DNA of 64,000 nt, from positions 51,513 to 115,512 of the forward strand of contig CALHTB010000009.1 of NCBI GenBank assembly GCA_938038785.1, read 5' to 3'. The notes beneath the pieces were generated by a model, which saw only the letters and a program-made list of their open reading frames with translations, did not search any database and was not told where the DNA came from. The DNA comes from an uncultured Acidimicrobiales bacterium. GTDB lineage: Bacteria > Actinomycetota > Acidimicrobiia > Acidimicrobiales > SHLQ01. The position numbers and the translations under genes were made by a program. Within the stretch, counting starts at the first letter, position 1, and every line of letters starts with the position of its first letter. Below are positions 6,697-31,448 of this stretch, in pieces.

Positions 6697-6781
6697 TAAG
6701 AGAGTGTCTTTTCGATTTGTAAGAAGTACTCAGCGTACTGGCACCACGGCCATGCCCGAGCGATATAGGCACGGTTGGTGG

Positions 6782-16061: not shown

Positions 16062-17357
16062 TTAACCAGCAGCGAGTGCTGCGGCGACCCAGCTGTCAGC
16101 GAGATCACGGTTGTCCGAAATCCAGCCAGCAGCAATTTCGTTCACTGCATCGGTCGAGCCGTCAGAGGCGTCGAGTGCGATGCCAGCGATTGCGAGGTCG
16201 ATGAGTGGGGGCTTGAACTGGTTGAACATTTCGAGAGCTACTGGGTTCTCAGCCATCCACGCCTTGTTGGCGGTGATTTCGATGTCAGCAGCTTCCCAGC
16301 CAACCTGGCAGCCGTTGTCGCCAAGGCAGGTGTCTTCGCCGAGGCCGGTGTAACCGACGCTCTCACCGCAACGCTGGCAGTATGCCTCGCCACCTTCACG
16401 GCCGAGTGGGTTGGAGTCGTCGAGAACCGAGTCCTCGTCAACCGAGAGCCACATCGTGGTCTCGCCAGGGATTGCCTGTGCGAGGTACGAGGTAGGCGTC
16501 CAGGTGTAGATGATTGCTGGTTCGCCAGCCTGAGCCTTGGTCAGGAACTCGGCGAACATTGCGTCGTAGCCAGCCTGGGTCTGCTCGAGGTTTTCCCAAC
16601 CAGCGAACTCGATCTGCGAAGCCATGATGTCGTCGCAGGTCCAGTCTTCTGGGCAACCGAAGAACTCGCCCTTGCCGTTGCCGTCAGAGTCGAGCTGGCT
16701 CCAGAGAGCCTCGTCGTCGTTGATCTGGTCGAGGGTAAGAACACCGTTGTCTTCAGCCCAGCTCTTGGTTACGAGCATGCCCTGGAGACCGCCACCTTGC
16801 ATGAGGGAACCCTCGATGCGCTGAAGGTTGTCGCCAACCTGGGTGCCGTCTGGAAGCTCGCCTTCCCACCAGCTGAGGTGACCTGGGTACCAAGAGTTGG
16901 CCCAGAAGTCGATCTCGCCGGTAGCCATTGCCTGGTAACCGAGGTCAGGTGCGAATTCTGCGTCAGCAGGCTCGGAAACTTCGTATCCGACCTCTACGAG
17001 GAGATCACGCAAAATAGCAGCCTGGACGTAACCAGAGGACCAGTTTGCACGGCCCATGGTTGCGGTTCCGAGGGAGCCGGCTTCAGCCATAGCTTCGCCG
17101 TCTTCCATGGCCTCGTCGTCTTCCATGGCTTCATCGTCTTCCATGGCTTCATCGTCTTCCATGGCCTCGTCGTCTTCCATGGCTTCATCGACTGCGTCAG
17201 CAGCGTCACCCGCTGCGTCTTCTGCTGCATCAGCAACATCACCTGCAGCGTCTGCTGCATCCGATGCCACGTCGCTCACGGTGCTACCACATGCTGCAGC
17301 GAACATCGCTACAACTGTGAGCAACGCGAGCCAGAGGCTCTTTTTCGTTGTCTTCAT
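16062..17357 (-). CDS. proX: glycine betaine/proline betaine ABC transporter substrate-binding lipoprotein (OpuAC/ProX family)
   Basis: 431 aa. Signal peptide plus lipobox MFAAAC. Acidic linker with (DDEAME)x5. OpuAC-type aromatic-rich core ([19 protein letters not shown] motifs). Last gene of the proV-proW-proX operon. SD AAGGAGGGG. Confidence 0.9.
17099..17188. repeat. 18-bp in-frame tandem repeat x5 inside proX
   Basis: cgtcttccatggcYtcRt is repeated five times head to tail (17099-17188). It encodes EAMEDD x5 in the post-lipobox linker. Confidence 0.92.
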
Positions 17358-17464: not shown

Positions 17465-19900
17465 TTAACCGCCGAGCAATGCCGACGTGTCGAGGTTTGC
17501 TTCGGCGTTCGCTGCGGCTTCCTCGTCGATCAGATCGATGTCGTCTCCGGCGATTAGTGCCGCTTCGATGTGAGCAACGTCGCTGTAAATCTTGCGACGG
17601 CGGAACTCATTCACGACACTTCGTCCACTAGTGAAGACCACAAACCCGGCGAGGAACGTCATAAACGCTCCGATGCCGCCAAGGGTCGTCGAACCAATGC
17701 CAACTCGAACAATGCCAAGAATAAACGCCATCGGGATGGTCATCATCGCAAGGCCAATTCCGGCCAGGAACGCCGAGCTCTTCCAGCGCATTTGCTCGCC
17801 AGCACCAATCAAGCCCGCAGAGAACAGCGAGGTGAGTACGGCGAGGGCTCCGAGACCCATCGAAATCCACCCGAGACCAGGTCCGTCGGGGTCAACACCG
17901 CTGTAGATGATCTTGTCACCGGACTGGACGCTGTTGATTAGGTTCTGAATGTCTTGAGCTGCAGCGATCTGCTTGTTGATGTCGTCGCCGGCCCCTTCGC
18001 GGAGCTCTTCGATGCGGGCGGCAATGTCTGGCGGGACGTCCTCTGAGGCTCGCTGGATGGCTTCCAAGCGCTCGTCGAAGTACCAACCCCAACCACCATT
18101 TGCGTCTTCACGTTCACCGACGCCGAATGCGGATCCGGTGACGAGAAGCAATGCAAATACGGTTGCCGCAATACGACCCCACGCAATGTCGGTAGGCAGT
18201 GGTCGACGTGGGCCATAGGGGGCGCTGAACGTTGCGACCGCAGCTCCAACAACGGCAAGCGCTGCGCCAAGAAGCCCAATGGTAACGCCGATGCCGTGGC
18301 TGTAGTCCACAACGAATGGCGATGGCTGCAACAGGAAGTAGCCCAACGCTGCGCCGAGCATTCCGATCGTGGCAATGAGTGCGCCGTCAGCGCCAAGGCG
18401 AGGTGTGCCTGTCGCGAACGTCTCAATGCCGATCATGACTACGCAGAGGCCGAAGAGGGCCAAACCGATGGTCGAAAGCAACCCGGTTGGGCCAAGGCCG
18501 CCGAAGACTCCCTCGAGGGTGTTCAAAAGCCATACGGCGATGATGATTGCGGTGATCGCTACCAGCATCATTCCCTGGCCCTTGAGCATCAACCGAGAGA
18601 TGGCGGCTGGGAAGGACAGCAAGGGCCGTAGCGACGCGACCAGAGCCAACAGCGCAAAGATGCCGAGGGCAATGCCAAACATCGTTCCGCCCGAGGCGGC
18701 AATGCCGTTGAACGAAAGTCCGCTGAGTTCGCCAGCGGCGTTCTCGTCGGCGAATCGGCCATAGGAGCTGACCAGACCAGCGTTGTTGGCCCATGGAAGG
18801 AACAGCGCAACGAGGGCAACGACCGAGCCTGCAGCAGACACCATCAGGCCGGTGCGCTCACGTCCACCAACAGGGGCAGGACGTTCGGTTTCCTCTGGCT
18901 CCTCGACAACCGGTGCTGCCTGGGCTGCCTGTGCTTCAAGGAGACCTTCGGGGTTTGCGCGGTAGGCGAATGCCTGCTTGATCTTGGTCGACAAGCTGAC
19001 GCCGTCCTGGGCTTCGGTTTGGGAGATGCGGTCGAGGATGACCGCCACCAAGAAGAAGGCCAGGCCAGCCGATGCGGCGAGACCCAGGTTGAGGTTGTTG
19101 ATTGCACGGAAGAGCAGGCGGCCAAGGCCACCAGCGCCCATAAGTGCTGCAATGCCGAGCATCGAGATGGCGAGCAACAAGGTCTGGTTGAGGCCGGTCA
19201 TAATCGCCGGGCGTGCCAGTGGTAGCTGCACATCGGTAAGGACTCGAAGCTCGGTGGCGCCGTAGGCACGAGAAGCTTCGACCACATCCTCGGGAACCTG
19301 ACGGATACCGAGGTTGGTGAGGCGCACAAGCGGCGGAAGCGCGAACACCATCGTCACCATCGTTGCCGAGACGTTGCCCAGGCCAAAGAAGAAGATGAAC
19401 GGCAACATGAACACAAAGGAGTGCACAACCTGCATGGCGTCGAGCGTGGGTCGCACCACGTTCCATACGCCGTCGAAACGGCCCGACAAGATGCCGAGCG
19501 GAATGCCGACGATGGCACACAAGGTGACCGACACCAAGATCATGCCGATGGTCTTCGCTGTCTCGGTCCAGTACTCGGCGCCGAGGAAGCCACACACCGA
19601 CAACATCGCCGCACAGGCAAGGCCGATGCGAGTGTTTCGGGTGAACGATGCAATGACGAATACGCCGATCACAACCCATACCCATGGGATGGTCATGATG
19701 GAGTCGCGGCCAACCCGTTCGCTCATGATGAGCTCGAAGAAGGTGCGGAACGGCCATTCGATCACGTCACCGATAAACGATGTGATGGGGTTGTTCACCG
19801 CCCAGAAAACAAGCTCCTTGAGCCACTCACCGAACGGGAACCGAAAGCCTTCCGGCCAGCTGTTGTCAATGAAACTCTCTTGTGCAAATACAACACTCAT
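17465..19900 (-). CDS. proW: betaine ABC transporter permease (ProW/OpuAB domain) fused to a ~500-aa polytopic C-terminal extension, paralog 1
   Basis: 811 aa. Residues ~1-300 form the ProW-type BPD_transp_1 permease (EAA-like loop ASRAYGATELRVLTDVQLPLARPAIMTG). The remainder has about 10 further hydrophobic helices and a conserved soluble segment, GWGWYFDERLEAIQRASEDVPPDI...SGDKIIYSGVDPDGPGLGW. The start overlaps the proV stop. Confidence 0.88.
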   Translation of the reverse strand: MSVVFAQESFIDNSWPEGFRFPFGEWLKELVFWAVNNPITSFIGDVIEWPFRTFFELIMSERVGRDSIMTIPWVWVVIGVFVIASFTRNTRIGLACAAMLSVCGFLGAEYWTETAKTIGMILVSVTLCAIVGIPLGILSGRFDGVWNVVRPTLDAMQVVHSFVFMLPFIFFFGLGNVSATMVTMVFALPPLVRLTNLGIRQVPEDVVEASRAYGATELRVLTDVQLPLARPAIMTGLNQTLLLAISMLGIAALMGAGGLGRLLFRAINNLNLGLAASAGLAFFLVAVILDRISQTEAQDGVSLSTKIKQAFAYRANPEGLLEAQAAQAAPVVEEPEETERPAPVGGRERTGLMVSAAGSVVALVALFLPWANNAGLVSSYGRFADENAAGELSGLSFNGIAASGGTMFGIALGIFALLALVASLRPLLSFPAAISRLMLKGQGMMLVAITAIIIAVWLLNTLEGVFGGLGPTGLLSTIGLALFGLCVVMIGIETFATGTPRLGADGALIATIGMLGAALGYFLLQPSPFVVDYSHGIGVTIGLLGAALAVVGAAVATFSAPYGPRRPLPTDIAWGRIAATVFALLLVTGSAFGVGEREDANGGWGWYFDERLEAIQRASEDVPPDIAARIEELREGAGDDINKQIAAAQDIQNLINSVQSGDKIIYSGVDPDGPGLGWISMGLGALAVLTSLFSAGLIGAGEQMRWKSSAFLAGIGLAMMTIPMAFILGIVRVGIGSTTLGGIGAFMTFLAGFVVFTSGRSVVNEFRRRKIYSDVAHIEAALIAGDDIDLIDEEAAANAEANLDTSALLGG

Positions 19901-21123
19901 TACATGAACACCTCTCGCTCGAAGCCGTCTATCAGTTGCTCGACTCGGCCCATCTCTTCCATCATTTCGCGAGGATTCAGCACGCCGACAAGGCGTCCTG
20001 ACTCATCGACGACGGCCATCGGGAGCCCGCGGCCAGCTGAGGCGTACACCTCGTTGAATGTTTGTGTTGGCGCACACGTTTCGAAGTCGATGCGAAGCGC
20101 CGAGCCGACCTCGGTCGTTCCCATCTGCGCAGCACGAATGCCGTCCTCGACGGTGAGCAAACCAGTAGGTCGCCCGTCGTCATCAACGGCGAAGGCACCC
20201 GACGCGTCGCCAAGGCTGGTGATGGCATCGGAGAGCGTTGCGCTCGACGAAACAGTGGTGGCGCCAGACATGATTGTCTGTACGTCGATCACTCGACCCT
20301 GGTCGACGTCCTGAACGAACTCGGCTACATAGCCGGTTGCAGGTTGGGTGAGGATCTCCTCGGGAGTGCCGATCTGGACGACCGCGCCGTCCTTCATGAT
20401 GCAGACACGGTCGCCAATGCGAAGTGCCTCGTTCAGATCGTGAGTAATAAAGAGGATGGTCTTCTTCAGTTGTTCCTGAATTGCCATCATCTCGTCCTGC
20501 ATCTGACGGCGGATGAGCGGATCGAGTGCAGAGAACGCCTCGTCCATAAGGAGAATGTCGGGGTCAGCTGCGAGTGCACGGGCAAGACCAACGCGCTGCT
20601 GCATACCGCCGGAAAGTTCACGGGGGCTGTTGTGGGCGAACGACTCGAGGCCGACAAGCTTCAGCGCTTCGAGCGAAGCCTTATCGCGCTCGGCCTTCTC
20701 GACCTTTTGCACCTTGAGGCCATAACCGGTGTTGTCGATGACCGAGCGATGCGGGAAAAGGGCGAAGTGCTGGAACACCATGCCCATCTTCTCTCGGCGG
20801 AACTGCTGCAGCGATGGCCCGTTGAGTGCCTGCACATCGACACCATCGACGAACACATGGCCGTCGGTGATGTCGTGAAGCTTGTTCACGGTTCGGATAG
20901 CGGTGGACTTGCCCGAGCCGGACAATCCCATGATCACGAACGTCTCGCCGCGGTTCACGCTGAACGTCACGTCACTCATGCCGACCACGTGATCGGTGGC
21001 GGCTTGGACGTCGTTCTTTTTCATGCCGCTCTTGGCGAGCGTGAGTGCACGACCCCGGGGCTGAGGCCCAAAGATCTTGAAGACGTTCTCTAGCCTGATG
21101 ATTTCGTCACCGTGTTCAGCCAC
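19900..21123 (-). CDS. proV: glycine betaine/L-proline ABC transporter ATP-binding protein with tandem CBS domains
   Basis: 407 aa, GTG start. Walker A GLSGSGKST, signature LSGGMQQRVGLARAL, Walker B ILLMDEAFSALD. The C-terminal ~130 aa is a CBS pair, as in OpuAA/ProV. Confidence 0.95.
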   Translation of the reverse strand: MAEHGDEIIRLENVFKIFGPQPRGRALTLAKSGMKKNDVQAATDHVVGMSDVTFSVNRGETFVIMGLSGSGKSTAIRTVNKLHDITDGHVFVDGVDVQALNGPSLQQFRREKMGMVFQHFALFPHRSVIDNTGYGLKVQKVEKAERDKASLEALKLVGLESFAHNSPRELSGGMQQRVGLARALAADPDILLMDEAFSALDPLIRRQMQDEMMAIQEQLKKTILFITHDLNEALRIGDRVCIMKDGAVVQIGTPEEILTQPATGYVAEFVQDVDQGRVIDVQTIMSGATTVSSSATLSDAITSLGDASGAFAVDDDGRPTGLLTVEDGIRAAQMGTTEVGSALRIDFETCAPTQTFNEVYASAGRGLPMAVVDESGRLVGVLNPREMMEEMGRVEQLIDGFEREVFM

Positions 21124-21277
21124 GCGCGATACCCCTATCCATTGTGTCGGCGGTCACGAGAGTAGCACTGAACCCAAGTACTTCCGAACTGGGCCGTATG
21201 AACTCTGAACCGTGAATTTGTTGATTTTTCATTTGTTTTGGTGTCTCTTTGTCACGCGTTTGGAATGTTCTTTCCAG

Positions 21278-23710
21278 CTATGAACCTAAGGCAGCGTCGA
21301 TATCGAGGTTCTCGGCCGCGTTCGCCTCGACGTCCTCATCGACGAGATCGATGAATTCATCGTCGCCAGCGATGCGCGCGGCCTTGACATGAGCGTCATC
21401 GCTGTAGATCTTGCGTCGGCGGAACTCTTCGACAACCCCGCGACCGCTCGCGAACACGATGAACCCTGCGAGGACGGTCATGAACGCTCCGATACCGCCG
21501 AGGGTTGTCGAGCCAATGCCAACTCGAACAATGCCCAGGATGAAGGCCATCGGGACGGTCATCATGGCCAGTCCAAGACCGGCGAGCACCGCGGAGGCGC
21601 GCCAACGCCGTTGCTCTCCCCCGCCGAGAACACCGGCCGAGAACAACGAGGCAACCACGGCAAGCCCGGCGAATGCCATCGAGATCCAGCCAAGGCCTGG
21701 GCCGTCCGCGTCGACACCGCTGTAGATGACCCGGTCACCACTTTGGACACTGTTCATCAGGTTCTGAATGGCCTGAGCATTCGCGATCTGCTTGTTGATG
21801 TCGTCACCGGCTTCTTCGCGGAGTCGTTCGATCTCTGCTTCGATGTCTGGCGGCACGTCCTCAGAGGTTCGCTGGATTGCTTGGACACGCTCGTCGAAGT
21901 ACCAGCCCCACCCGCCGTTGGCGGTTTCACGCTCGCCAACGCCGAATGCCGAGCCAACAACAAGGAGCAACGCGAAGACGGCGGCACCAACGCGACCCCA
22001 CGAAATGGTTGCGGGGAGCGGGCGCCGCGGACCGTATGGCGCGGACAAGGTTGCGAGTGCGCCGCCGGCGAGGGCGACTGCCGAGCCCGCAATCGCAAGC
22101 ATGATGCCCGTACCGTGGCTGTAGCCAACAACGAAGTTCGATGGCTGTAAGAAGAAGTAGCCCAGCGATGATCCGAGCATGCCGATTGCGAGCAGTAGCG
22201 CACCGTCAGATCCGAGCCGCGGAGTGCCTCGGCTAAAGGTCTCAACTGCGATCATGGCAACGGTAATAGCGAAGAGCCACAGTCCAATCGTCGAGAGAAG
22301 ACTTGTGGGGCCAAGAGTGCCGAGGACCCCTTCGAAGATGTTGAGCAGCCAAACGGCGACGATGATCGCCGTTATGGCCGCGAGCATGACGCCTTGTCCT
22401 CTCAGCATCAGCTTTCCAACCGCGTCGGGAAATGACACAAGCGGTCGCACCGACGCGAGGAGCGCGAGCACGGTAAACAGACCCAGCAAGATGCCGTAGA
22501 ACGTGCCGCCCGATGCAACGAAGCCATTGAACGACTGGCCAGCGAGTTCCGTCTCGTCGGCGAAGCGACCATAGGAACTGACCAAGCCTGCGTTGTTACC
22601 CCACGGCAGAAACAGCGATACGAGTGCAAGGATCGAGCCGAGTGCGCCAAGGAGAAGGCCGATCCGCTCGGTTGAACTCACCGGTGCGGGACGCTCGGCT
22701 GGTTCGGCGTCAGGTTCGATTGGCTTGGCTTGGGCAGCCTGAGCTTCGAGAAGGCCCTCGGGGTCGGCCCGGTACGCAAATGCCTGTTTGATCTTGGTCG
22801 ACAGGTTGACACCGTCTTGGGCTTCGGTCTGTGACATGCGGTCGAGGATGACTGCGACAAGGAAGAAGGCCAGCCCAGCCGAAGCCGCCAGGCCGAGGTT
22901 GAGGTTGTTGATTGCACGGAAGAGCAAGCGGCCGAGACCGCCAGCACCCATGAGCGCTGCGATGCCGAGCATCGAGAACGCAAGCAACAAGGTCTGGTTG
23001 AGGCCAGTCATGATTGCAGGTCGCGCCAGCGGCAGCTGCACATCGGTAAGGACTCGCAGCTCGGTGGCTCCGTAGGCTCTCGATGCTTCCACCACATCTT
23101 CGGGCACCTGCCTCACCCCTAAGTTCGTCAGACGAACGAGCGGGGGAAGCGCAAACACCATCGTGGTCATGGTTGCCGAGACGTTGCCAAGGCCGAAGAA
23201 GAAGATGAAGGGCAACATAAACACGAACGGGTGTACAACCTGCATGGCGTCGAGGGTTGGTCGCACCACGTTCCACACGTTGTCGAATCGACCCGACACG
23301 ATGCCGAGTGGTATGCCGACGATTGCACACAGCGTGACCGAAACGAGGATCATGCCGATGGTCTTTGCGGTCTCAGTCCAGTACTCGGCGCCGAGGAACC
23401 CACATACGGACAGCATCGCGGCACAGGCGAGCCCGATGCGGGTGTTGCGGAGGAAGGAGGCGATCACGAAGATGCCGATTACGACCCACACCCACGGGAT
23501 GGTCATGATCGAGTCACGGCCAACGCGTTCACTCATGATGAGTTCGAAGAAGGTGCGAAACGGCCATTCGACCACGTCGCCGAGGAATGCGGTGACGGGG
23601 TTATTCACCGCCCAGAAGACGAGCTCCTTGAGCCATTCGCCGAACGGAAACCGAAAGCCTTCTTGCCAACTGTTGTCCGTGAAATTCTCTTGAGCAAAAA
23701 GGACGCCCAT
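21278..23710 (-). CDS. proW: betaine ABC transporter permease with ~500-aa C-terminal extension, paralog 2
   Basis: Track ORF 21278..23743. The preferred start is MGVLFAQENF at 23710, preceded by a GGGGGAGA SD, and it aligns with the paralog 1 start MSVVFAQESF. The permease half is nearly identical to paralog 1 by eye. The C-terminal half is collinear but more diverged. Confidence 0.88.
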   Translation of the reverse strand: MGVLFAQENFTDNSWQEGFRFPFGEWLKELVFWAVNNPVTAFLGDVVEWPFRTFFELIMSERVGRDSIMTIPWVWVVIGIFVIASFLRNTRIGLACAAMLSVCGFLGAEYWTETAKTIGMILVSVTLCAIVGIPLGIVSGRFDNVWNVVRPTLDAMQVVHPFVFMLPFIFFFGLGNVSATMTTMVFALPPLVRLTNLGVRQVPEDVVEASRAYGATELRVLTDVQLPLARPAIMTGLNQTLLLAFSMLGIAALMGAGGLGRLLFRAINNLNLGLAASAGLAFFLVAVILDRMSQTEAQDGVNLSTKIKQAFAYRADPEGLLEAQAAQAKPIEPDAEPAERPAPVSSTERIGLLLGALGSILALVSLFLPWGNNAGLVSSYGRFADETELAGQSFNGFVASGGTFYGILLGLFTVLALLASVRPLVSFPDAVGKLMLRGQGVMLAAITAIIVAVWLLNIFEGVLGTLGPTSLLSTIGLWLFAITVAMIAVETFSRGTPRLGSDGALLLAIGMLGSSLGYFFLQPSNFVVGYSHGTGIMLAIAGSAVALAGGALATLSAPYGPRRPLPATISWGRVGAAVFALLLVVGSAFGVGERETANGGWGWYFDERVQAIQRTSEDVPPDIEAEIERLREEAGDDINKQIANAQAIQNLMNSVQSGDRVIYSGVDADGPGLGWISMAFAGLAVVASLFSAGVLGGGEQRRWRASAVLAGLGLAMMTVPMAFILGIVRVGIGSTTLGGIGAFMTVLAGFIVFASGRGVVEEFRRRKIYSDDAHVKAARIAGDDEFIDLVDEDVEANAAENLDIDAALGS

Positions 23711-23880
23711 GAACTGTCTCCCCCATGGTGGTTCGCGAATCACGAACCACCGCCGTATGTGTCGCGCGTCACGACCGTAGCATGAGGTATGGGTATTGCC
23801 GCCATGTTCAGTCCGGTAATAACCGTTGAGATTTCAGTACCCTTACGTGGTGTTTGGGTGGGTATACCTGAGGTTTGGAC

Positions 23881-25272
23881 TCATCCCACCGATTCAACGG
23901 TTTCGGCGGTTTCGAGAACCTGCGCGAGGTCGAACACCGCCACGTCAGATTCGGGCAATCGGTCACCCATTGCCCCAATCGGGCTCACGATTCGAGCTGC
24001 TGGCAGTCCATCGACGTCTCGACCAATGCCGGTCACATCGAGCGATACCAACGTGCCTTCGGCAACCCAAACCAGCGCTCGAGAGTCGGGGGTCCACGTG
24101 ATGGTGTCGTCGACCGCCAGGCGTTCGGTCCAGAAGTGAGACGAGTTCCCTTCGAGGTCGAACAGCGACCATCGAGTTCCCTGCACGGATAGAAGCAGCC
24201 TGCCATCGGGGCTAATGCGCACGATTGCATCATTGCTGAGAGCGTTGGCGTCGACGATCTGCTGATCCGACCCGTCCCAGCGCGACACCGACCCCACACA
24301 CTCCAGTCGGTTATCGCAGGCCACCCCCGCAATGTGCTCTGGGCTGGCGGCAATCGCCCGGCCCACACTGCGGGGCAGCGCCTCAAAGCCGCCACCTTCG
24401 ACAATGCTGCTTTCGGCAGTTGGGCTCGACACGATAATTCCCGCGCCGGCAACAGGAAGGATGGTCCACGATTTCGGAGCCTGCGCAGTGCCGTTCATCG
24501 CTGGGCCCCATAGCGAACCGACAAAGAAGTCGGTCGGTGCATCTTCGTTCTCGGAAATGAACGCGTAGCTATCGAGCTCGCTGCCGAGGCGAACCATTCG
24601 AACCGAGTTGGACAACTTCCCCGAGCGTTCTGGTTCGAGGAGGTCGATAAGCCAGGTTGCGTTCTCGCCGCCGATGAGTTGAATGTGCTCCGGCAGCGGC
24701 GGGACGTCGTGTTGTGCGAGCGTCGCCACCGGTAATGCCGCTCCGGTTTCAAGTGATCGCAGCTCGAGCTGATCATCGTCTCGTACCCACGCAATGACCA
24801 GCCCTTCAAGGAGTTCGTTGTCGACGAACGAAAGCCGACTCAGGTACTGCAGCTGGTCTTGCCGCTCAAGCTCTTCTGGGTCGACCTCCTCGACGGGTTC
24901 GTCGTCCGCTGTCTCAACCTCGGGATCTAACGGCAGCTCGATGGAACTTGGCGTGGCCTGCTGATGGTCAGAATCACCTTCGTCGGTGGTCGACGAACCA
25001 AGCAGTACGAGGGCAACGAATGCCAGGGCGAGCAAGCCAACTATTGCCGCCAAAGCTCCGACCTGGCTGGAACGACCATGTGGTTCTGGAAGTGCAAGGT
25101 CATCGCCCGAGAGGTCGGACCCTCCGGGGCCGTATCCCAGCAGTTCGATACCAACCGAAGGCGGTGGTGCCGACTCGTTGGACTCACTAGGTGCCAAGCC
25201 GCCGTCACCGCCGCTGGTCGGACTGCCAGGACGGGCGTTGCGGCCACCACGAGATGGCCGCGTTCTTCCCAT
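23881..25272 (-). CDS. hypothetical single-pass membrane protein with possible beta-propeller-like ectodomain
   Basis: 463 aa. Disordered G/S/P-rich N-terminus, one TM helix (VGALAAIVGLLALAFVALVLLG), an acidic linker, then a ~300-aa beta-rich region with repeated W/D-containing strands. No recognisable catalytic motif. Confidence 0.6.
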   Translation of the reverse strand: MGRTRPSRGGRNARPGSPTSGGDGGLAPSESNESAPPPSVGIELLGYGPGGSDLSGDDLALPEPHGRSSQVGALAAIVGLLALAFVALVLLGSSTTDEGDSDHQQATPSSIELPLDPEVETADDEPVEEVDPEELERQDQLQYLSRLSFVDNELLEGLVIAWVRDDDQLELRSLETGAALPVATLAQHDVPPLPEHIQLIGGENATWLIDLLEPERSGKLSNSVRMVRLGSELDSYAFISENEDAPTDFFVGSLWGPAMNGTAQAPKSWTILPVAGAGIIVSSPTAESSIVEGGGFEALPRSVGRAIAASPEHIAGVACDNRLECVGSVSRWDGSDQQIVDANALSNDAIVRISPDGRLLLSVQGTRWSLFDLEGNSSHFWTERLAVDDTITWTPDSRALVWVAEGTLVSLDVTGIGRDVDGLPAARIVSPIGAMGDRLPESDVAVFDLAQVLETAETVESVG

Positions 25273-25294: not shown

Positions 25295-26674
25295 ATGTCT
25301 ACAGATCTGGCTGGAGAGGCGGGTGGCCCGGCCGTGAGTGTCGCGGAAGATGGGCCGCTCGTCGGCGCCCAATCTCGGCCGGCGATTACCTCACCGCTTC
25401 TGTCGATGTGGGCGCTGTTCTTGGGCGTGCTGGCAATGATGCTCGGCAACGGCTTGCAGGGCACCGCAATGGGTGTGCGTGCAATCAACGAGGAGTTCGC
25501 CGTCACCGTCATCGGGTTCATCCAGGCTGCCTACTACGTGGGTTTCCTCGCCGGTTCGCGCTTCACCATCCGGGCCCTATCGAAAGTCGGCCATGTCCGA
25601 GTCTTCGCCGCGTTGGCCTCGATGGCATCGACTGCGTTCGTCCTCCCAGCGTTGCTCGTGAATCCGGTCGCCTACCTGGCGATGCGTCTCGTGATTGGCT
25701 TTTGTATGGCGGGGCTCTATGTCGTGGTTGAAAGCTGGCTCAACGATCAAGCAACACCAGAGACGCGTGGCCGTACTCTGTCGATCTACATGGTCGTGAC
25801 CATGGGCGGCGTCACCGGTGGCCAGCTGCTGTTGAACGTGGCCGATCCAAACGGATTTGAACTGTTCGTGATCGCATCGGTCTTGGTGTCGATTTCGCTG
25901 GTGCCGATGGCATTGTCCGAATCGAGCGCACCCCCGCTGCCAGCGGTCGGGCGGCTGCCGTTTAAGACACTCTTTGGCATTGTCCCAACCGGTGTCATCA
26001 TGATGTTCTTATCTGGGGCTGCTGCCGGTGCGGTCTTCGCATTTGCCCCGGTCTATGCCGCACGAATTGGCATGAGCACCGCGCAGATCTCGTTGTTCAT
26101 CGCAATGGCGTTGTTTGGTTCGATGATCTTTCAAATGCCGATCGGCTATATCTCCGACAAGGTGCCGCGCCGAGGCGTGATGGCGGTGTGTGCGGCCGGA
26201 GCCACCGCAGCCTCGTTCGTCGGCATCGGAACCAGCACTGGCACTGATGCGCTCGTCGTCATGTTCGTTATCGGTGCTACGTCGTTCCCGCTCTACTCGC
26301 TGGCGATCGCCTACACCAACGACTGGATCTCCGACGACCAGCGCGTTGGCGCATCGGGCTTGCTGGTCATGATCAACGGCGTTGGCGCAGTGCTCGGGCC
26401 GCTCGTCGCCTCGGTGCTGATGTCGCAATTTGGCTCGTCGGCGTATTTCTGGATCTTGGTCGGAACCCACGGCGCCATGCTGTGCTACCTGATGTATCGC
26501 ATCGTCGTTCGTGACGCTGTGGCCGTCGAAGACCAGTCTCAATACCGCCCGTACCACGCACGTTCGTCGCCGCTTGCAACAACGATTGGCCGCCGACGTC
26601 TGCCAAAGCCCCCGCGCCCCAAACTTCCCCGCTCCGCCCAGCGTGTTGGTGCCAAGAAGGCGCCCGAAAAGTAA
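25295..26674 (+). CDS. MFS transporter
   Basis: 459 aa. 12 TM profile. MFS loop motif region (GYISDKVPRRGVM). Confidence 0.88.
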   Translation: MSTDLAGEAGGPAVSVAEDGPLVGAQSRPAITSPLLSMWALFLGVLAMMLGNGLQGTAMGVRAINEEFAVTVIGFIQAAYYVGFLAGSRFTIRALSKVGHVRVFAALASMASTAFVLPALLVNPVAYLAMRLVIGFCMAGLYVVVESWLNDQATPETRGRTLSIYMVVTMGGVTGGQLLLNVADPNGFELFVIASVLVSISLVPMALSESSAPPLPAVGRLPFKTLFGIVPTGVIMMFLSGAAAGAVFAFAPVYAARIGMSTAQISLFIAMALFGSMIFQMPIGYISDKVPRRGVMAVCAAGATAASFVGIGTSTGTDALVVMFVIGATSFPLYSLAIAYTNDWISDDQRVGASGLLVMINGVGAVLGPLVASVLMSQFGSSAYFWILVGTHGAMLCYLMYRIVVRDAVAVEDQSQYRPYHARSSPLATTIGRRRLPKPPRPKLPRSAQRVGAKKAPEK

Positions 26675-26747
26675 CCGGTTTGGCCCGGGTCGCGTGGTTG
26701 CGTCCATACTGTCTCGCAGTCAACGACGACTCGTGGAGGAGACACTG

Positions 26748-27965
26748 ATGAGCGCAGATATGGATCGCCTGGTTACCTGGCACAACGGCGAGAAGACCCT
26801 TGGTCCGTTCTCGGTTGCCGAAATGGAATCACGCCAGCAGAAGCTGCGGACGCATATGGCCGAGAATGATGTCGACGCGGTGGTGCTCACCAGCTATCAC
26901 AACATCACCTATTTCTCCGGGTTCATGTACTGCGCGTTTGGCCGCAACTACGGGTTCGTCGTAACCCCTGATGCAGCGACGAGCGTTTCTGCTGGCATCG
27001 ATGGCGGCCAGCCGCACCGCCTTACAAATGGCGACAACATCACCTACACCGACTGGCGCAAAGACAACTTCTTCTACGCACTGCAAACCCTCATCACCGG
27101 GGCCAAGCGCATCGGGATCGAGTTCGACGAGGTCAGCATCGATCTTCGCGACAAGATCCAAGCAGCGTTCCCCGAGGTCGAACTGGTCGACGTCGGAGCA
27201 CCCACGATGTGGATCCGAACCATCAAGTCGGCCGAAGAGATCGCCCACATCAAGAAGCTCACCGCCATTGCCGACATCGGCGGCGAAGCGTGCCGTCAAG
27301 CCATCGGCGTTGGCGTACCCGAACATGAGGTGGCGCTCGCGTCGACTCAAGCCATGGTGCGAGAGCTCGCCAAGACCTACGAGTACTCCGAGCTGATGGA
27401 CACCTGGACCTGGTTCCAGTCAGGCATCAACACCGATGGAGCGCACAACCCGGTCACCAACCGTGTAATCGAAGAGGGCGACATTCTGTCGATCAACTGC
27501 TTCCCCATGCTTTTTGGCTACTACGTCGCCCTCGAGCGCACGCTGTTCGCGAACTCCGTGTCCGACGAACACATGCGTCTATGGAACATCAACGTCGAAG
27601 TACACGAGGCAGGCCTCGAGCTCATCAAGCCCGGCGCGAAATGCTCCAACATTGCCTCCGAGCTCAACGACATCTACCGCGGCTACGACCTGCTCAACAC
27701 CCGCTCATTCGGCTATGGACACAGCTTCGGCGTGCTCTGCCACTACTACGGACGCGAAGCTGGCGTAGAGCTACGCGAAGACATCGAAACCGAGCTCCAA
27801 CCCGGCATGGTCGTCTCGATGGAACCAATGATCATGATCCCCGAAGGGCAACCCGGAGCTGGCGGCTACCGCGAACACGACGTGCTCGTCATCAACGACG
27901 ACGGCACCGTCGACAACATCACCGGCTTCCCATACGGCCCCGAACACAACATCGTCCCGAACTAG
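26748..27965 (+). CDS. creatinase (creatine amidinohydrolase, M24-fold)
   Basis: The real start is MSADMDRLVTW, with SD GGAGGAG at 26735-26741. The track ORF from 26511 overlaps the MFS gene. The 405 aa match the creatinase family nearly block for block as I recall it: TSYHNI.YFSGF.YC.FGR, DGGQP.R, WTWFQSGINTDGAHNPVT, YGHSFG...HYYGREAG.ELRED, MEPMIM.PEG.PGAGGYREHD. Confidence 0.9.
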   Translation: MSADMDRLVTWHNGEKTLGPFSVAEMESRQQKLRTHMAENDVDAVVLTSYHNITYFSGFMYCAFGRNYGFVVTPDAATSVSAGIDGGQPHRLTNGDNITYTDWRKDNFFYALQTLITGAKRIGIEFDEVSIDLRDKIQAAFPEVELVDVGAPTMWIRTIKSAEEIAHIKKLTAIADIGGEACRQAIGVGVPEHEVALASTQAMVRELAKTYEYSELMDTWTWFQSGINTDGAHNPVTNRVIEEGDILSINCFPMLFGYYVALERTLFANSVSDEHMRLWNINVEVHEAGLELIKPGAKCSNIASELNDIYRGYDLLNTRSFGYGHSFGVLCHYYGREAGVELREDIETELQPGMVVSMEPMIMIPEGQPGAGGYREHDVLVINDDGTVDNITGFPYGPEHNIVPN

Positions 27966-29168: not shown

Positions 29169-30050
29169 CTACCCGAAGAGTTCGCCGATGACGTGTTCGG
29201 CTTGGACGACTACTCGCAGCGGCTCATCCGAGCGGCGGATGACGTGCATCGCCATCTCGGCGCCCGCATCACTGATCTTTACGTACGTGACACCCTCGGG
29301 ATGAAACGTTCGGACGCCGTTGGGCACGATGGCGCTTCCCTCGCCAGAGCTCACCAAGCCAAGGATGGTGGTGTACTCGGTGGCCTCGATCGCCGGGTCA
29401 TAGGACGAGCCGGCGTTGGTAAAGAGTTGCTGAAGTTGCTCGTGCAGGGTTGGCGACAACCTGCGGTCGAACCCAATGAGCGATGACGCGTCGATCTTTG
29501 CGACCGACACGCGCGTTTTGCCCGTCAGGCGGTGATCAGGGCCTACAGCGAGATACAAGGGCTCATCGAGGAACTTTGACGCGTGGATTCGCTCGTCGGC
29601 GGGAGAGGTGCGGCTGATGCCGAGGTCGATCTGTCCAGCCAAAAGCGCATCGGTTTGATTCGCGCTCGACATAATTTGCAGATCGTGGTCGACCTTGGGC
29701 CACCGTTGCCGGAATGCCCGGAGATAGCGAGGCATAACTTCAAACGACGCCGAATCAACGAACGCAAGGCGGAGCAGCCCGCCTTCGCCGCTGCGGAACT
29801 CTTCCATAACCCGTTCAGCGGAGTCGGCAGCAACCACGACTCGCTCGGCTTCGGTGCGAAGAACTGCGCCCGCGGCTGTGAGCGACACTCGGCGGGTTGT
29901 TCGGTCGAAGAGCTGGACGCCAAGCTCGGATTCGAGCAGACGGATCTGCTGGCTGAGCGGTGGTTGGGCCATGTGGAGGCGTTCGGCAGCGCGGCCAAAG
30001 TGCAGTTCGTCGGCGACGGCGAGGAAGTACCTCAAACGCTGCAGGTTCAT
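29169..30050 (-). CDS. LysR-family transcriptional regulator, divergent from soxBDAG
   Basis: The start is MNLQRLRYFLAVADELHFGRAAERLHMAQPPLSQQIRLLE (canonical LysR HTH), 294 aa. The track ORF extension to 30662 is antisense to soxB and rejected. Confidence 0.9.
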   Translation of the reverse strand: MNLQRLRYFLAVADELHFGRAAERLHMAQPPLSQQIRLLESELGVQLFDRTTRRVSLTAAGAVLRTEAERVVVAADSAERVMEEFRSGEGGLLRLAFVDSASFEVMPRYLRAFRQRWPKVDHDLQIMSSANQTDALLAGQIDLGISRTSPADERIHASKFLDEPLYLAVGPDHRLTGKTRVSVAKIDASSLIGFDRRLSPTLHEQLQQLFTNAGSSYDPAIEATEYTTILGLVSSGEGSAIVPNGVRTFHPEGVTYVKISDAGAEMAMHVIRRSDEPLRVVVQAEHVIGELFG

Positions 30051-30052
30051 GT

Positions 30053-30071
30053 GGCAATGATAGTAATTGCC
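30053..30071. promoter_or_regulatory. dyad symmetry in the LysR/soxB divergent intergenic region (candidate LysR box)
   Basis: ggcaat-gatagta-attgcc, a perfect 6-bp arm inverted repeat immediately upstream of the LysR start. It sits in an AT-richer 90-bp spacer. Confidence 0.45.
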
Positions 30072-30140
30072 TCTTAATGATGCCAAGATTGATACGGCAG
30101 ATTGCGTGACCGCCTCTCTGCGCCTTCCTACACTGCGCCC

Positions 30141-31448
30141 ATGGTGTCCTTTCGAAAATCGAACCCAGGGCCGGTGCGCTATAGCGCTGCGACCCTTGCA
30201 CGCAAAGGCCTCTCGGGCGACGACTGGCCTCGGGTCTGGCGAGACCACGACCTCAGGAAGACCTACGACGTCATCATCATCGGCGGCGGCGTGCACGGTC
30301 TGGCGACGGCGTACTATCTCGCCACCAACCATGACATCACCAACGTTGCCGTGCTCGACAAGGGCTACCTCGGTGGTGGCGGCTCGGGCCGCAACACCGC
30401 GATTGTTCGCTCGAACTACCTGACCCCCGAGGGTGTGGCGTTCTACGACCGGTCGCTCACGCTGTACAACTCGATGGCTGCCGACTTGAACATCAACGTG
30501 ATGTTCAGCGAGCGGGGCCATATGACGTTGGCCCACACCGACTCGGCGCTTCGCACCATGCATTGGCGGGCCGAGGTCAACAAGCTCCAGGGCATCGATA
30601 GCTCGGTCATCGACCCCCAAGAGGTCAAGAAGATCTGCCCGAGCCTCGACATCACCAGCCATCCCCGCTATCCGATCCTCGGAGCACTACACCACCCCCC
30701 GGGCGGCATCATTCGACACGACGCAGTCGTGTGGGGGTACGCCCGTGGCGCCGACCACGCCGGCGTACACCTGCATCAAAAGACCGAAGTGCTTGACATC
30801 TTGTGTGAAGGCGGAGGGCTCGCCGACGGCAAAGGCGCTGGTGGCAAGGTCACCGGAGTCCGCACGAACCGCGGCGACATCTCGGCGCCGATCGTGGTCA
30901 ACTGCACCGCTGGCTGGGGCTCGCTCATTTCGAACATGGCTGGCGTGAAGCTGCCCATCGTCACCCACCCTCTCGAAGCTGCCGTAACCGAACCGGTCAA
31001 GGTGTTCCTGCCAGCGGTCGTGGTGTCGGGGTCGCTACACGTTTACGTAAGTCAAACCGACCGCGGCGAACTGGTCTTTGGTGCATCGGTCGACCCGTTG
31101 GCTACCTACTCGATGCGGGGCTCACTGAGCTTCACCGAAGAGCTCGCTGGCCACATCCTCGAGCTCATGCCAGGCATCTCGAAGATGCGGCTGCTGCGCC
31201 AGTGGGCCGGGCTGTGCGACATGACACCCGACTATTCGCCGATCATGGGCTTCACGCCGGTCGAGGGCCACCTCACCGACGTGGGCTGGGGCACCTACGG
31301 CTTCAAGGCTGGCCCCGTTTCTGGAGAACAAATGGCTGAATGCATTGCCACTCAACAAACCCCCAAGCTGATCGCACCGTTCAAACTGTCTCGCTTCGAG
31401 ACCGGTGAACTGGTTGGCGAAAAGGGTGCTGCGGCGGTGGGTCACTAA
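30141..31448 (+). CDS. soxB: heterotetrameric sarcosine oxidase subunit beta
   Basis: FAD motif YDVIIIGGGVHGLATAYYL. Other blocks are GRNTAIVRSNYL, HVYVSQTDRGELV, WGTYGFK and C-terminal LSRFETGELVGEKGAAAVGH. The start is either 30141 (MVSFRK) or 30102. Confidence 0.93.
   Translation: MVSFRKSNPGPVRYSAATLARKGLSGDDWPRVWRDHDLRKTYDVIIIGGGVHGLATAYYLATNHDITNVAVLDKGYLGGGGSGRNTAIVRSNYLTPEGVAFYDRSLTLYNSMAADLNINVMFSERGHMTLAHTDSALRTMHWRAEVNKLQGIDSSVIDPQEVKKICPSLDITSHPRYPILGALHHPPGGIIRHDAVVWGYARGADHAGVHLHQKTEVLDILCEGGGLADGKGAGGKVTGVRTNRGDISAPIVVNCTAGWGSLISNMAGVKLPIVTHPLEAAVTEPVKVFLPAVVVSGSLHVYVSQTDRGELVFGASVDPLATYSMRGSLSFTEELAGHILELMPGISKMRLLRQWAGLCDMTPDYSPIMGFTPVEGHLTDVGWGTYGFKAGPVSGEQMAECIATQQTPKLIAPFKLSRFETGELVGEKGAAAVGH

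Follow-up and report, generated by a model that had tools for sequence, protein, structure and literature searches.

A 64,000-nucleotide (nt) stretch of DNA from an uncultured Acidimicrobiales bacterium (contig CALHTB010000009.1; hereafter, the window) encodes an ATP-binding cassette (ABC) importer with two paralogous permeases, ProW-a and ProW-b. Each of them continues, beyond a permease of the OpuA/ProU type, into a C-terminal module of about 470 amino acids (aa) with ten predicted transmembrane (TM) helices. We propose, with moderate confidence and as the best explanation of the whole, that this module serves an OpuA/ProU-type importer as a dedicated accessory subunit, either a scaffold or a regulator, and that the fused gene was duplicated to yield the a/b pair. 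In such a system, a quaternary-amine importer would be composed of ProV with its CBS domains, the lipoprotein ProX, and a ProW that combines an Acidimicrobiia-lineage permease with the accessory ten-helix module, and the module would be a static membrane scaffold or a regulatory platform beside the translocation core. We favor a dedicated accessory subunit over a second transport path, because the module is found solely with ProW, lacks conserved intramembrane polar residues, has Gly-rich helices, and tolerates the gain and loss of helix pairs. OpuA and ProU are model systems for osmotic-stress sensing by ABC importers, and little is understood of their accessory membrane parts, of which the OpuA scaffold is one. 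Here, an accessory membrane domain larger than the transporter core is conserved in an abundant, mostly uncultured class of marine and freshwater Actinomycetota.

The fused genes are both intact. In the list of open reading frames (ORFs) of the window, four co-oriented genes on the minus strand follow one another in the order proW-b, proV, proW-a, and proX, and the ORFs at 17465-19900 and 21278-23743 are uninterrupted, in agreement with a preliminary description of this DNA, which had placed two fused ProW paralogues of about 810 aa on either side of proV. A longer proW-b ORF, opening with a GTG, would reach 23743; the ATG at 23710 is preferred as the start, because it aligns with the start of proW-a and has a GGGAG Shine-Dalgarno sequence 8 nt upstream. 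The proV stop codon and the proW-a ATG share one base (TGATG overlap). Could the long ORFs be artificial, an error of assembly or a frameshift having merged proW with a distinct gene downstream of it? The separate-gene order does exist, in the loci L039 and L041 described below. However, the window contains two independent unbroken copies, the fusion is likewise uninterrupted in over 60 full-length homologues, which come from assemblies independent of one another, and purifying selection at the codon level spans the junction between the permease and the module. An artefact is so improbable that we disregard it. Within the window, we found neither a frameshift or stop that splits these genes nor a known domain fused to ProW.

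The permease halves and the partner proteins define the class of the transporter. Pfam detects BPD_transp_1 (PF00528), and this only at aa 132-292, in both ProW proteins (80.4 and 79.0 bits; cut-off, 26.4), and the EAA coupling loop, EASRAYGATE...PLARPAI, is identical between the copies. By phmmer, aa 38-294 of ProW-a align with residues 10-274 of OpuABC (7ahc_A; 6e-44), including the N-terminal scaffold region. In Foldseek, the permease half of the predicted full-length model matches the transmembrane domain (TMD) of OpuA with a TM-score of 0.80, a root-mean-square deviation (rmsd) of 3.5 Å, and an E of 1e-10, and the full-length model matches this TMD through its N-terminal half only. ProV aligns end to end with Lactococcus lactis OpuAA (7ahc_D; 1.5e-104), covering the helix-turn-helix (HTH) insert and the CBS pair, and passes the proV subfamily model TIGR01186 of NCBIfam (373.9 bits; cut-off, 326.6). 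In the HTH region, the KRIK of OpuAA is replaced by PQPRGR in ProV, and further Lys residues are located nearby. In addition, Pfam reports ABC_tran and CBS in ProV and OpuAC (PF04069) in ProX, the latter with 87.2 bits against a cut-off of 21.2. Judged from these matches, the transporter core is a standard OpuA/ProU-type ABC importer. The best NCBIfam models for both ProW proteins are ChoW (TIGR03416) and ProW (NF008196), which cover aa 20-321, and neither reaches the equivalog level (215 bits versus a cut-off of 439 for ProW, and 218-220 versus 363 for ChoW). ProX is also below the ProX equivalog cut-off of NCBIfam (185 versus 215). The ProW and ChoW equivalog scores do not fix the identity of the substrate, and a quaternary-amine solute is the putative class.

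How is the C-terminal module built? It is joined to the permease by a Pro/Glu-rich cytoplasmic linker, and both the hydropathy profile and two AlphaFold runs place ten TM helices, c1-c10, after aa 346 (helix and residue numbers are those of ProW-a). The full-length run used 66 sequences and gave a mean predicted local distance difference test score (pLDDT) of 79.1 and a predicted TM-score (pTM) of 0.73, with the module blocks mostly at 85-97. The module-only run used 24 sequences (mean pLDDT 78.8, pTM 0.72). The extension of roughly ten helices ending in an acidic tail, as first described from the sequence, is thereby recovered: the cytoplasmic tail contains 4 Lys and Arg versus 11 Asp and Glu, with 11-15 acidic residues after the EFRRRK motif, and its sequence is weakly conserved (25% column identity). 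The C-terminus of the TMD in a type I importer is cytoplasmic, and Lys and Arg are concentrated in the predicted inside loops, after c2, c4, c6, c8, and c10. Therefore, the module probably has an N-in/C-in topology, with aa 593-676 outside.

From the models, we infer that this 80-aa segment between c7 and c8, the fourth extracytoplasmic loop (EL4), is an extracytoplasmic acidic helical hairpin insert. It consists of the GWGWYFDER strand, the acidic helical hairpin, the IIYSGV strand, and GPGLGW, and is acidic overall (15 Asp and Glu versus 5.5 Lys and Arg per sequence). It had been described as a highly conserved soluble segment, which is true between the two paralogues (82.5% identity) but not of the family, in which the hairpin is shortened to 9-18 aa in 4 of the 66 members; in a few members, as judged by eye, an acidic insert replaces it. 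Both AlphaFold runs predict short strands outside the membrane (369-372 with 396-398, and 607-609 with 664-666 and 739-741) and inside (339-341, 562-564, and 766-772). The inside strands fall on RPAPV, APYxPRRPLP, and EFRRRKxY, the motifs in which conservation of the module is highest, and together they probably form one small cationic cytoplasmic sheet. Across the 66 sequences, 22 module positions are invariant, either Gly in helices or interface residues, and include E348, R349, W370, G375, R382, D385, D505, G506, A560, P561, W606, D609, G673, W706, R732, F766, and R768. Across the module helices, no conserved charged or polar residue lies in a helix interior. A profile self-comparison with hhalign aligns c1-EL1-c2 with c7-EL4-c8 (P ~1e-3, probability 15-22%), with the EL4 hairpin appearing as an insertion, and suggests an internal duplication. 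The models likewise suggest that the module is composed of two tetraspan-like units, with extra helix pairs in some lineages. In each unit, a helix and a short beta strand would be followed by a loop that leads to a second strand and then to a Gly-rich helix.

The module has no match in the curated families or solved structures that we searched, by sequence or by fold, which upholds the initial view that the extension is not a named domain. With Pfam at E <= 10, 24 diverse modules had no family common to more than three members; the weak matches (HisKA_7TM in 1 of the 24, DUF6724 and DUF2207_C in 3 of the 24, and DUF3619 at E 0.14) were taken as chance. NCBIfam reports nothing past aa 321 of either ProW, and the best match of a sequence profile search of the PDB with the module has an E of 0.13. 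A Foldseek search of the PDB with the module model gave no match at E <= 0.001, the best rows having E 0.08-0.5 and query TM-scores of at most 0.18. The sole PDB matches with a Foldseek probability near 0.6 are claudins (E 0.16-0.43, target TM-score 0.35-0.39, rmsd >10 Å), and Pfam gives no claudin match for the module. As the match is not significant, we retain it as a shape analogy only: as in the claudin/PMP22-like tetraspans, each module half is modelled with a TM helix that is followed by a short pair of extracellular strands, and these by TM helices and a strand from the next outer loop, with a conserved Trp after the first helix. Literature searches on long ProW variants and on betaine transport in Acidimicrobiia returned no title or abstract that treats the fused architecture. 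The module thus appears to be a confidently modelled membrane fold with no solved relative.

Next, we surveyed the distribution of the module. A word-indexed search returned 80 clusters, almost all of 700-820 aa with PF00528, and their few source names are mostly Acidimicrobiales or Actinomycetota metagenome-assembled genomes (MAGs). A profile search of 1.84 billion protein representatives yielded only 139 clusters at E <= 1e-3, and nearly all matches of at least 250 aa have the N-terminal ProW permease or are fragments or split genes. P0204 and P0213 match the module profile without a detectable permease; the weakest profile matches, P0213 (fn3 repeats) and P0205 (zinc ribbon), were judged spurious. 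A scan of 185,579 species genomes with a six-member module alignment gave 35 loci, labelled Acidimicrobiales, Acidimicrobiia, Ilumatobacter(aceae), or Actinomycetota, plus one "bacterium" and two "Verrucomicrobia" bins. The latter (L009, CAXMRH010000192.1, and L012, JBLIMK010000169.1), binned as Chthoniobacterales/Verrucomicrobiales, are probably mis-binned Acidimicrobiia contigs, because their modules are 64-65% identical to that of the window; L009 also has the usual gene order of upstream gene, proV, proW, and proX. Among the labelled loci, apart from these two contigs, the module is confined to marine-type Acidimicrobiia. Short fragments without context being set aside, every match that can be placed in context either belongs to a ProW fusion or comes from a gene that immediately follows proW.

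The number of helices varies within the family. The c3-c4 pair is missing in 14 of the 66 members, which are shorter forms of 700-730 aa with an eight-helix module, and the loci labelled Ilumatobacter(aceae)/Acidimicrobiaceae encode proteins of similar length. In P0081 (950 aa) and P0090 (933 aa), a part of the module profile, roughly c3-c6, is matched twice, which implies a duplication of helix pairs inside the module and would give about 14 TM helices. These numbers bear on the idea that ProW was fused, for the sake of co-expression, to a transporter or channel in its own right, which might be an efflux valve or a secondary carrier of the same solute. Eight to 14 helices are indeed the typical size of a secondary carrier, and the top Foldseek rows are transporters. 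However, these rows are insignificant (see above), the helix interiors are devoid of conserved charged or polar residues, helix pairs are gained and lost, and the module is never away from proW where the context is readable. We consider an independent transporter very unlikely.

In two distant genomes, the module is encoded by a gene of its own. L039 has proV, proW (384 aa), and a module gene (357 aa) with a TGATG overlap, and L041 has proV, proW (352 aa), and a module gene (342 aa) with an 8-nt overlap. The two modules are 44.5% identical without DNA similarity, indicating that the split arrangement is conserved and is not a sequencing error. The extension is therefore part of one protein in the window and its fused homologues, as initially described, and a separate gene directly after proW in these two genomes. 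Fusion in one lineage and adjacent coupled genes elsewhere are a classic sign of one shared complex. L039 and L041 are the only true split genes among the candidates for a stand-alone module: the gene of P0062 ends at the contig end, P0094/L038 is a frameshifted fused gene, L043 is fragmented, and L044 has no upstream context to judge by. By eye, the translations of the split-gene modules are missing both the EFRRRK motif and the acidic tail.

What, then, does the module do? Conjecturally, it may have an osmosensing, lipid-sensing, or scaffold role. Three points weigh against a scaffold or regulatory subunit as proposed here. First, "scaffold" is partly a default reading. Second, the invariant extracytoplasmic residues W370, G375, R382, D385, W606, D609, and R732 could mark a specific binding surface. 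Finally, the absence of the EFRRRK motif and the acidic tail from the split-gene modules means that tail-based regulation is not universal.

The same invariant extracytoplasmic residues are in keeping with a module that would dock or retain the lipoprotein ProX on its extracytoplasmic cap (EL1, EL4, and EL5), in functional analogy to the binding-domain fusion in L. lactis OpuA. The TMD C-terminus of OpuABC is likewise extended by an outward-crossing helix, and the OpuA scaffold has been proposed to aid the docking of the substrate-binding domain (SBD) (PMC7673798). Nevertheless, the EL4 hairpin is dispensable in some lineages, the proX of L039 is on the opposite strand past another gene, no proX is present in the ~1.2 kb of the L041 contig downstream of the module, and ten helices exceed the needs of a docking loop. 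On balance, ProX docking seems quite unlikely.

A somewhat unlikely alternative is that the module regulates the importer by ionic strength or osmotic state. The cationic mini-sheet would bind anionic lipids, the acidic tail would partner with the cationic HTH/CBS region of ProV, and high ionic strength would screen these charges and turn the transporter on. In L. lactis OpuA, the cationic HTH and anionic lipid constitute an ionic-strength sensor (PMC7673798), and the window ProV retains the OpuA-type HTH insert with basic residues and the CBS pair. In the module, the most conserved motifs are cationic and cytoplasmic, and the tail is rich in acidic residues. On the other hand, this tail is poorly conserved and missing in the split-gene versions, and the creatinase-like and sarcosine oxidase alpha-subunit-like neighbours described below suggest nutrient uptake, for which osmoregulation is not required. 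A bolder and unlikely version would make the module an undescribed class of membrane-embedded sensor, in which a tandem claudin-like tetraspan unit gates an OpuA-type importer in response to the bilayer state or ionic strength, with the cationic sheet and the acidic tail working with the HTH and CBS parts of ProV; the repeated a/b pairs would then reflect selection for an asymmetric regulatory assembly.

The comparison of proW-a and proW-b reveals the history of the fused gene. The proteins are 81% identical overall. The identity is highest in the permease core (95.4%; aa 21-300; 13 of 280 positions differ), intermediate in the soluble segment (82.5%) and in c8-c10 (79%), and lowest in the tail (69%) and in c1-c7 (68%). 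Thus, as originally seen, the permease halves are nearly identical and the extensions more diverged. The paralogue identity of permease and module is 95% and 73.5% in the window, and 67-75% and 37-45% in older pairs. Between the window copies, the synonymous divergence (dS) amounts to 0.84 for the permease core and ~1.0-1.6 across the module, with saturation in the tail, and the ratio of nonsynonymous to synonymous divergence (dN/dS) to 0.04 for the core versus 0.10-0.15 for the module. Both the permease and the module are under purifying selection. Recent gene conversion, as a cause of the near-identical cores, was rejected: the core dS is ~0.84, and the proportion of synonymous differences (pS) in sliding windows never falls below 0.42. 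With a core dN/dS of 0.04, the near-identity therefore reflects strong constraint.

In a gene-order survey of 40 loci, the commonest arrangement has one fused gene, in the order 463-aa membrane protein, proV, proW, proX, and terC. Two copies occur as W'-V-W-X in the window, in a close MAG (L003, L004, and L008), and in L001, and as V-W'-W-X in L020 and L022. In L040 (6781-17574, on a 4.08-Mb contig), there are two consecutive sets of proV, long proW, and proX, with ProW proteins of 728 and 709 aa, and the first ProX has 777 aa, about twice the usual length. Neighbour-joining trees calculated separately for each half gave the same grouping. ProW-a clusters with the single-copy genes of L005 and L006, and is the orthologue of the relatives' single-copy genes; proW-b clusters with the upstream copy of the close MAG, and the pairs of L001 and of L020/L022 are located elsewhere in the tree. 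Since the pairs are scattered in this manner, at least two or three separate duplications probably took place. Most relatives carry a single fused proW, so the fusion predates the duplication, an ancestral homodimer is the simplest assumption, and the pair was added in individual lineages. All 22 invariant module residues are kept in every copy but one, including both window copies. This retention, together with the dN/dS values, supports the initial claim that the duplication took in the entire fused gene and that neither copy has been lost. The exception is the upstream paralogue of L022 (5540-7876), in which G375S, R382N, and R732V were lost together, hinting that R382 and R732, both extracytoplasmic, interact. 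The fused, split, single-copy, and paired forms provide natural comparisons for the function of an accessory domain, and the practical payoff will be modest until transport is measured with and without the module.

A promoter-like 25-nt motif is found upstream of both proW-b and proV (Table 1). Its pattern, TGCTAC(G/T)(G/C)TCGTGAC...CGACACA, has two copies in the 64-kb window, against 0 expected; it opens with the extended -10-like TGCTACNNT (TGnTAnnnT), followed by CGTGAC...CGACACA, and an A-rich stretch 5' of the motif is partly conserved. The same motif precedes the upstream proW copy of L008 (7905-7928) and, in the single-copy locus L021, proV (6725-6748). The 154-bp spacer before proV, mentioned in the preliminary description, is present and A-rich. 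A scan with the sigma-70 consensus found no promoter, terminator-like sites are near the chance level, and the spacers match neither a riboswitch nor any other RNA family in Rfam. We infer that the duplication carried the operon promoter or leader along, and that proW-b and proV-proW-a-proX may be two similarly controlled transcription units.

How do two ProW proteins share one ProV and one ProX? In Bacillus subtilis, OpuB and OpuC use two different TMDs (OpuCB/OpuCD in the latter; PMC11466899), so heterodimeric TMDs are not unheard of in the wider osmoprotectant ABC family. The gene content of the window follows this OpuB/OpuC-type pattern, with two distinct TMD genes, one ATPase, and one substrate-binding protein in one cluster. 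As two copies have repeatedly been retained beside one proV and one proX, the simplest reading is a heterodimeric TMD, and a ProW-a/ProW-b pair on a ProV dimer is plausible. Weighing against this reading, two alternative homodimers fit the same gene content: the paralogues could form separate homodimers with the shared ProV and ProX, as two isoforms that differ in regulation or expression. The single-copy relatives must function as homodimers, the few core differences probably leave the interfaces intact, and proW-b has its own promoter-like motif. In contrast, the pairs retained after the separate duplications always accompany just one proV and one proX, within a cluster the size of an operon, and the 67-75% permease identity of the older pairs is the pattern of the obligate heterodimeric TMD pair OpuCB/OpuCD (PMC11466899). 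We regard separate homodimers as possible, though on the doubtful side, and continue to prefer the heterodimer.

Table 1. Features of the importer locus in the window and of the ProW-a module. Numbers are window positions unless marked aa (ProW-a numbering).
Feature	Position	Strand	Description
Promoter-like 25-nt motif, TGCTACGGTCGTGACGCGCGACACA	23758..23782	minus	48 nt upstream of proW-b
Second motif copy, in proW-b/proV spacer	21143-21167	minus	20 nt before proV
proW-b	21278..23710	minus	Upstream paralogue, 810 aa; OpuA/ProU-type permease and C-terminal module
proW-b permease half, aa 1-320	22751..23710	minus	Predicted N-terminal scaffold helices and BPD_transp_1 core
proW-b ten-TM C-terminal module, aa 340-810	21281..22693	minus	Module profile match 1e-218
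Spacer proW-b/proV	21124..21277	minus	154 bp, A-rich
proV	19900..21123	minus	ATPase; OpuA-type helix-turn-helix insert and tandem CBS pair
proW-a	17465..19900	minus	Downstream paralogue, 811 aa; architecture as proW-b
proW-a permease half, aa 1-320	18941..19900	minus	Alignment and fold match to OpuABC 7ahc_A
proW-a C-terminal module, aa 340-811	17468..18883	minus	Ten TM helices, c1-c10
EL4, aa 593-676 of ProW-a	17873..18124	minus	Predicted extracytoplasmic loop
Cytoplasmic tail of ProW-a, aa 764-811	17468..17611	minus	EFRRRKxY motif, then acidic stretch
proX	16062..17357	minus	Lipoprotein-type OpuAC substrate-binding protein, acidic repeat linker
Helix c1	aa 346-365		
Helix c2	aa 407-427		
Helix c3	aa 432-466		
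Helix c4	aa 472-497		
Helix c5	aa 504-523		
Helix c6	aa 537-559		
Helix c7	aa 574-592		
Helix c8	aa 677-694		
Helix c9	aa 702-733		
Helix c10	aa 743-763		

The surroundings of the importer genes point to the use of its substrates. Upstream, at 26511-27965, 29169-30662, and 31900-34779, the window encodes a creatinase/prolidase-like M24 protein, a LysR regulator, and a sarcosine oxidase alpha-subunit-like protein, which suggests that the importer supplies the catabolism of methylated amines. Genes for MttB-family, FTHFS, TauD/GBBH-like, and BKACE proteins are present in related loci. Together, these neighbours suggest the uptake of betaine-type compounds as nutrients, possibly besides osmoprotection.

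Several further features were noted. The LysR ORF has 497 aa with its HTH at aa 207-265, which means that the start is miscalled or that the protein has a 200-aa N-terminal extension. Directly upstream of the transporter genes, at 23881-25272 on the minus strand, lies the gene for the 463-aa protein, in which a cytoplasmic N-terminus rich in Pro, Gly, and Arg is linked by a single TM helix to an extracytoplasmic domain of 370 aa, and which has no match in Pfam or NCBIfam. It occupies this place in many loci with the module (L001, L005-L011, L013, L015, and L021). In ProX, the lipobox is followed by a long acidic linker (17087-17258), encoded by an 18-nt tandem repeat (5.8 copies, translated as EDDEAM) and an adjacent 33-nt repeat. 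Within the window, Rfam matches are limited to two tRNA genes, both on the minus strand (553-627 and 1103-1175).

Finally, we compared the system with its known relatives. It shares with OpuA and ProU (L. lactis OpuAA/OpuABC and Escherichia coli ProVWX) the permease, a ProV with HTH and CBS parts, and a binding protein of the OpuAC/ProX type. In both OpuABC and the window ProW, the C-terminus of the TMD is prolonged by a helix that re-crosses the membrane. In OpuABC, however, one anchor helix and a soluble binding domain follow the TMD, while the window ProW has the ten-helix module and no binding domain; E. coli ProW ends after the permease without any extension. OpuA is a homodimeric complex, whereas the window locus has two different ProW genes.

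The closest functional analogy for the module is the N-terminal scaffold of OpuA, an accessory membrane domain covalently joined to an OpuA-type TMD, which is needed for activity and is static through the transport cycle (Sikkema et al. 2020, PMC7673798). The roles proposed for that scaffold are stability, SBD docking, and local thinning of the membrane (PMC7673798). It is made of four N-terminal helices, two of them amphipathic and two transmembrane, whereas the window module is five times larger, is located at the opposite end, and has no detectable homology to it; the window ProW proteins appear to have an OpuA-type N-terminal scaffold region as well. With regard to the pair of permeases, the window resembles B. 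subtilis OpuB and OpuC, in which genes for two distinct TMDs likewise accompany a single ATPase gene and a single binding-protein gene (PMC11466899). Unlike OpuCB and OpuCD, the window pair are recent ProW/OpuAB-type paralogues with 95% identical cores and not OpuCB/OpuCD orthologues, and most of their relatives have a single copy.

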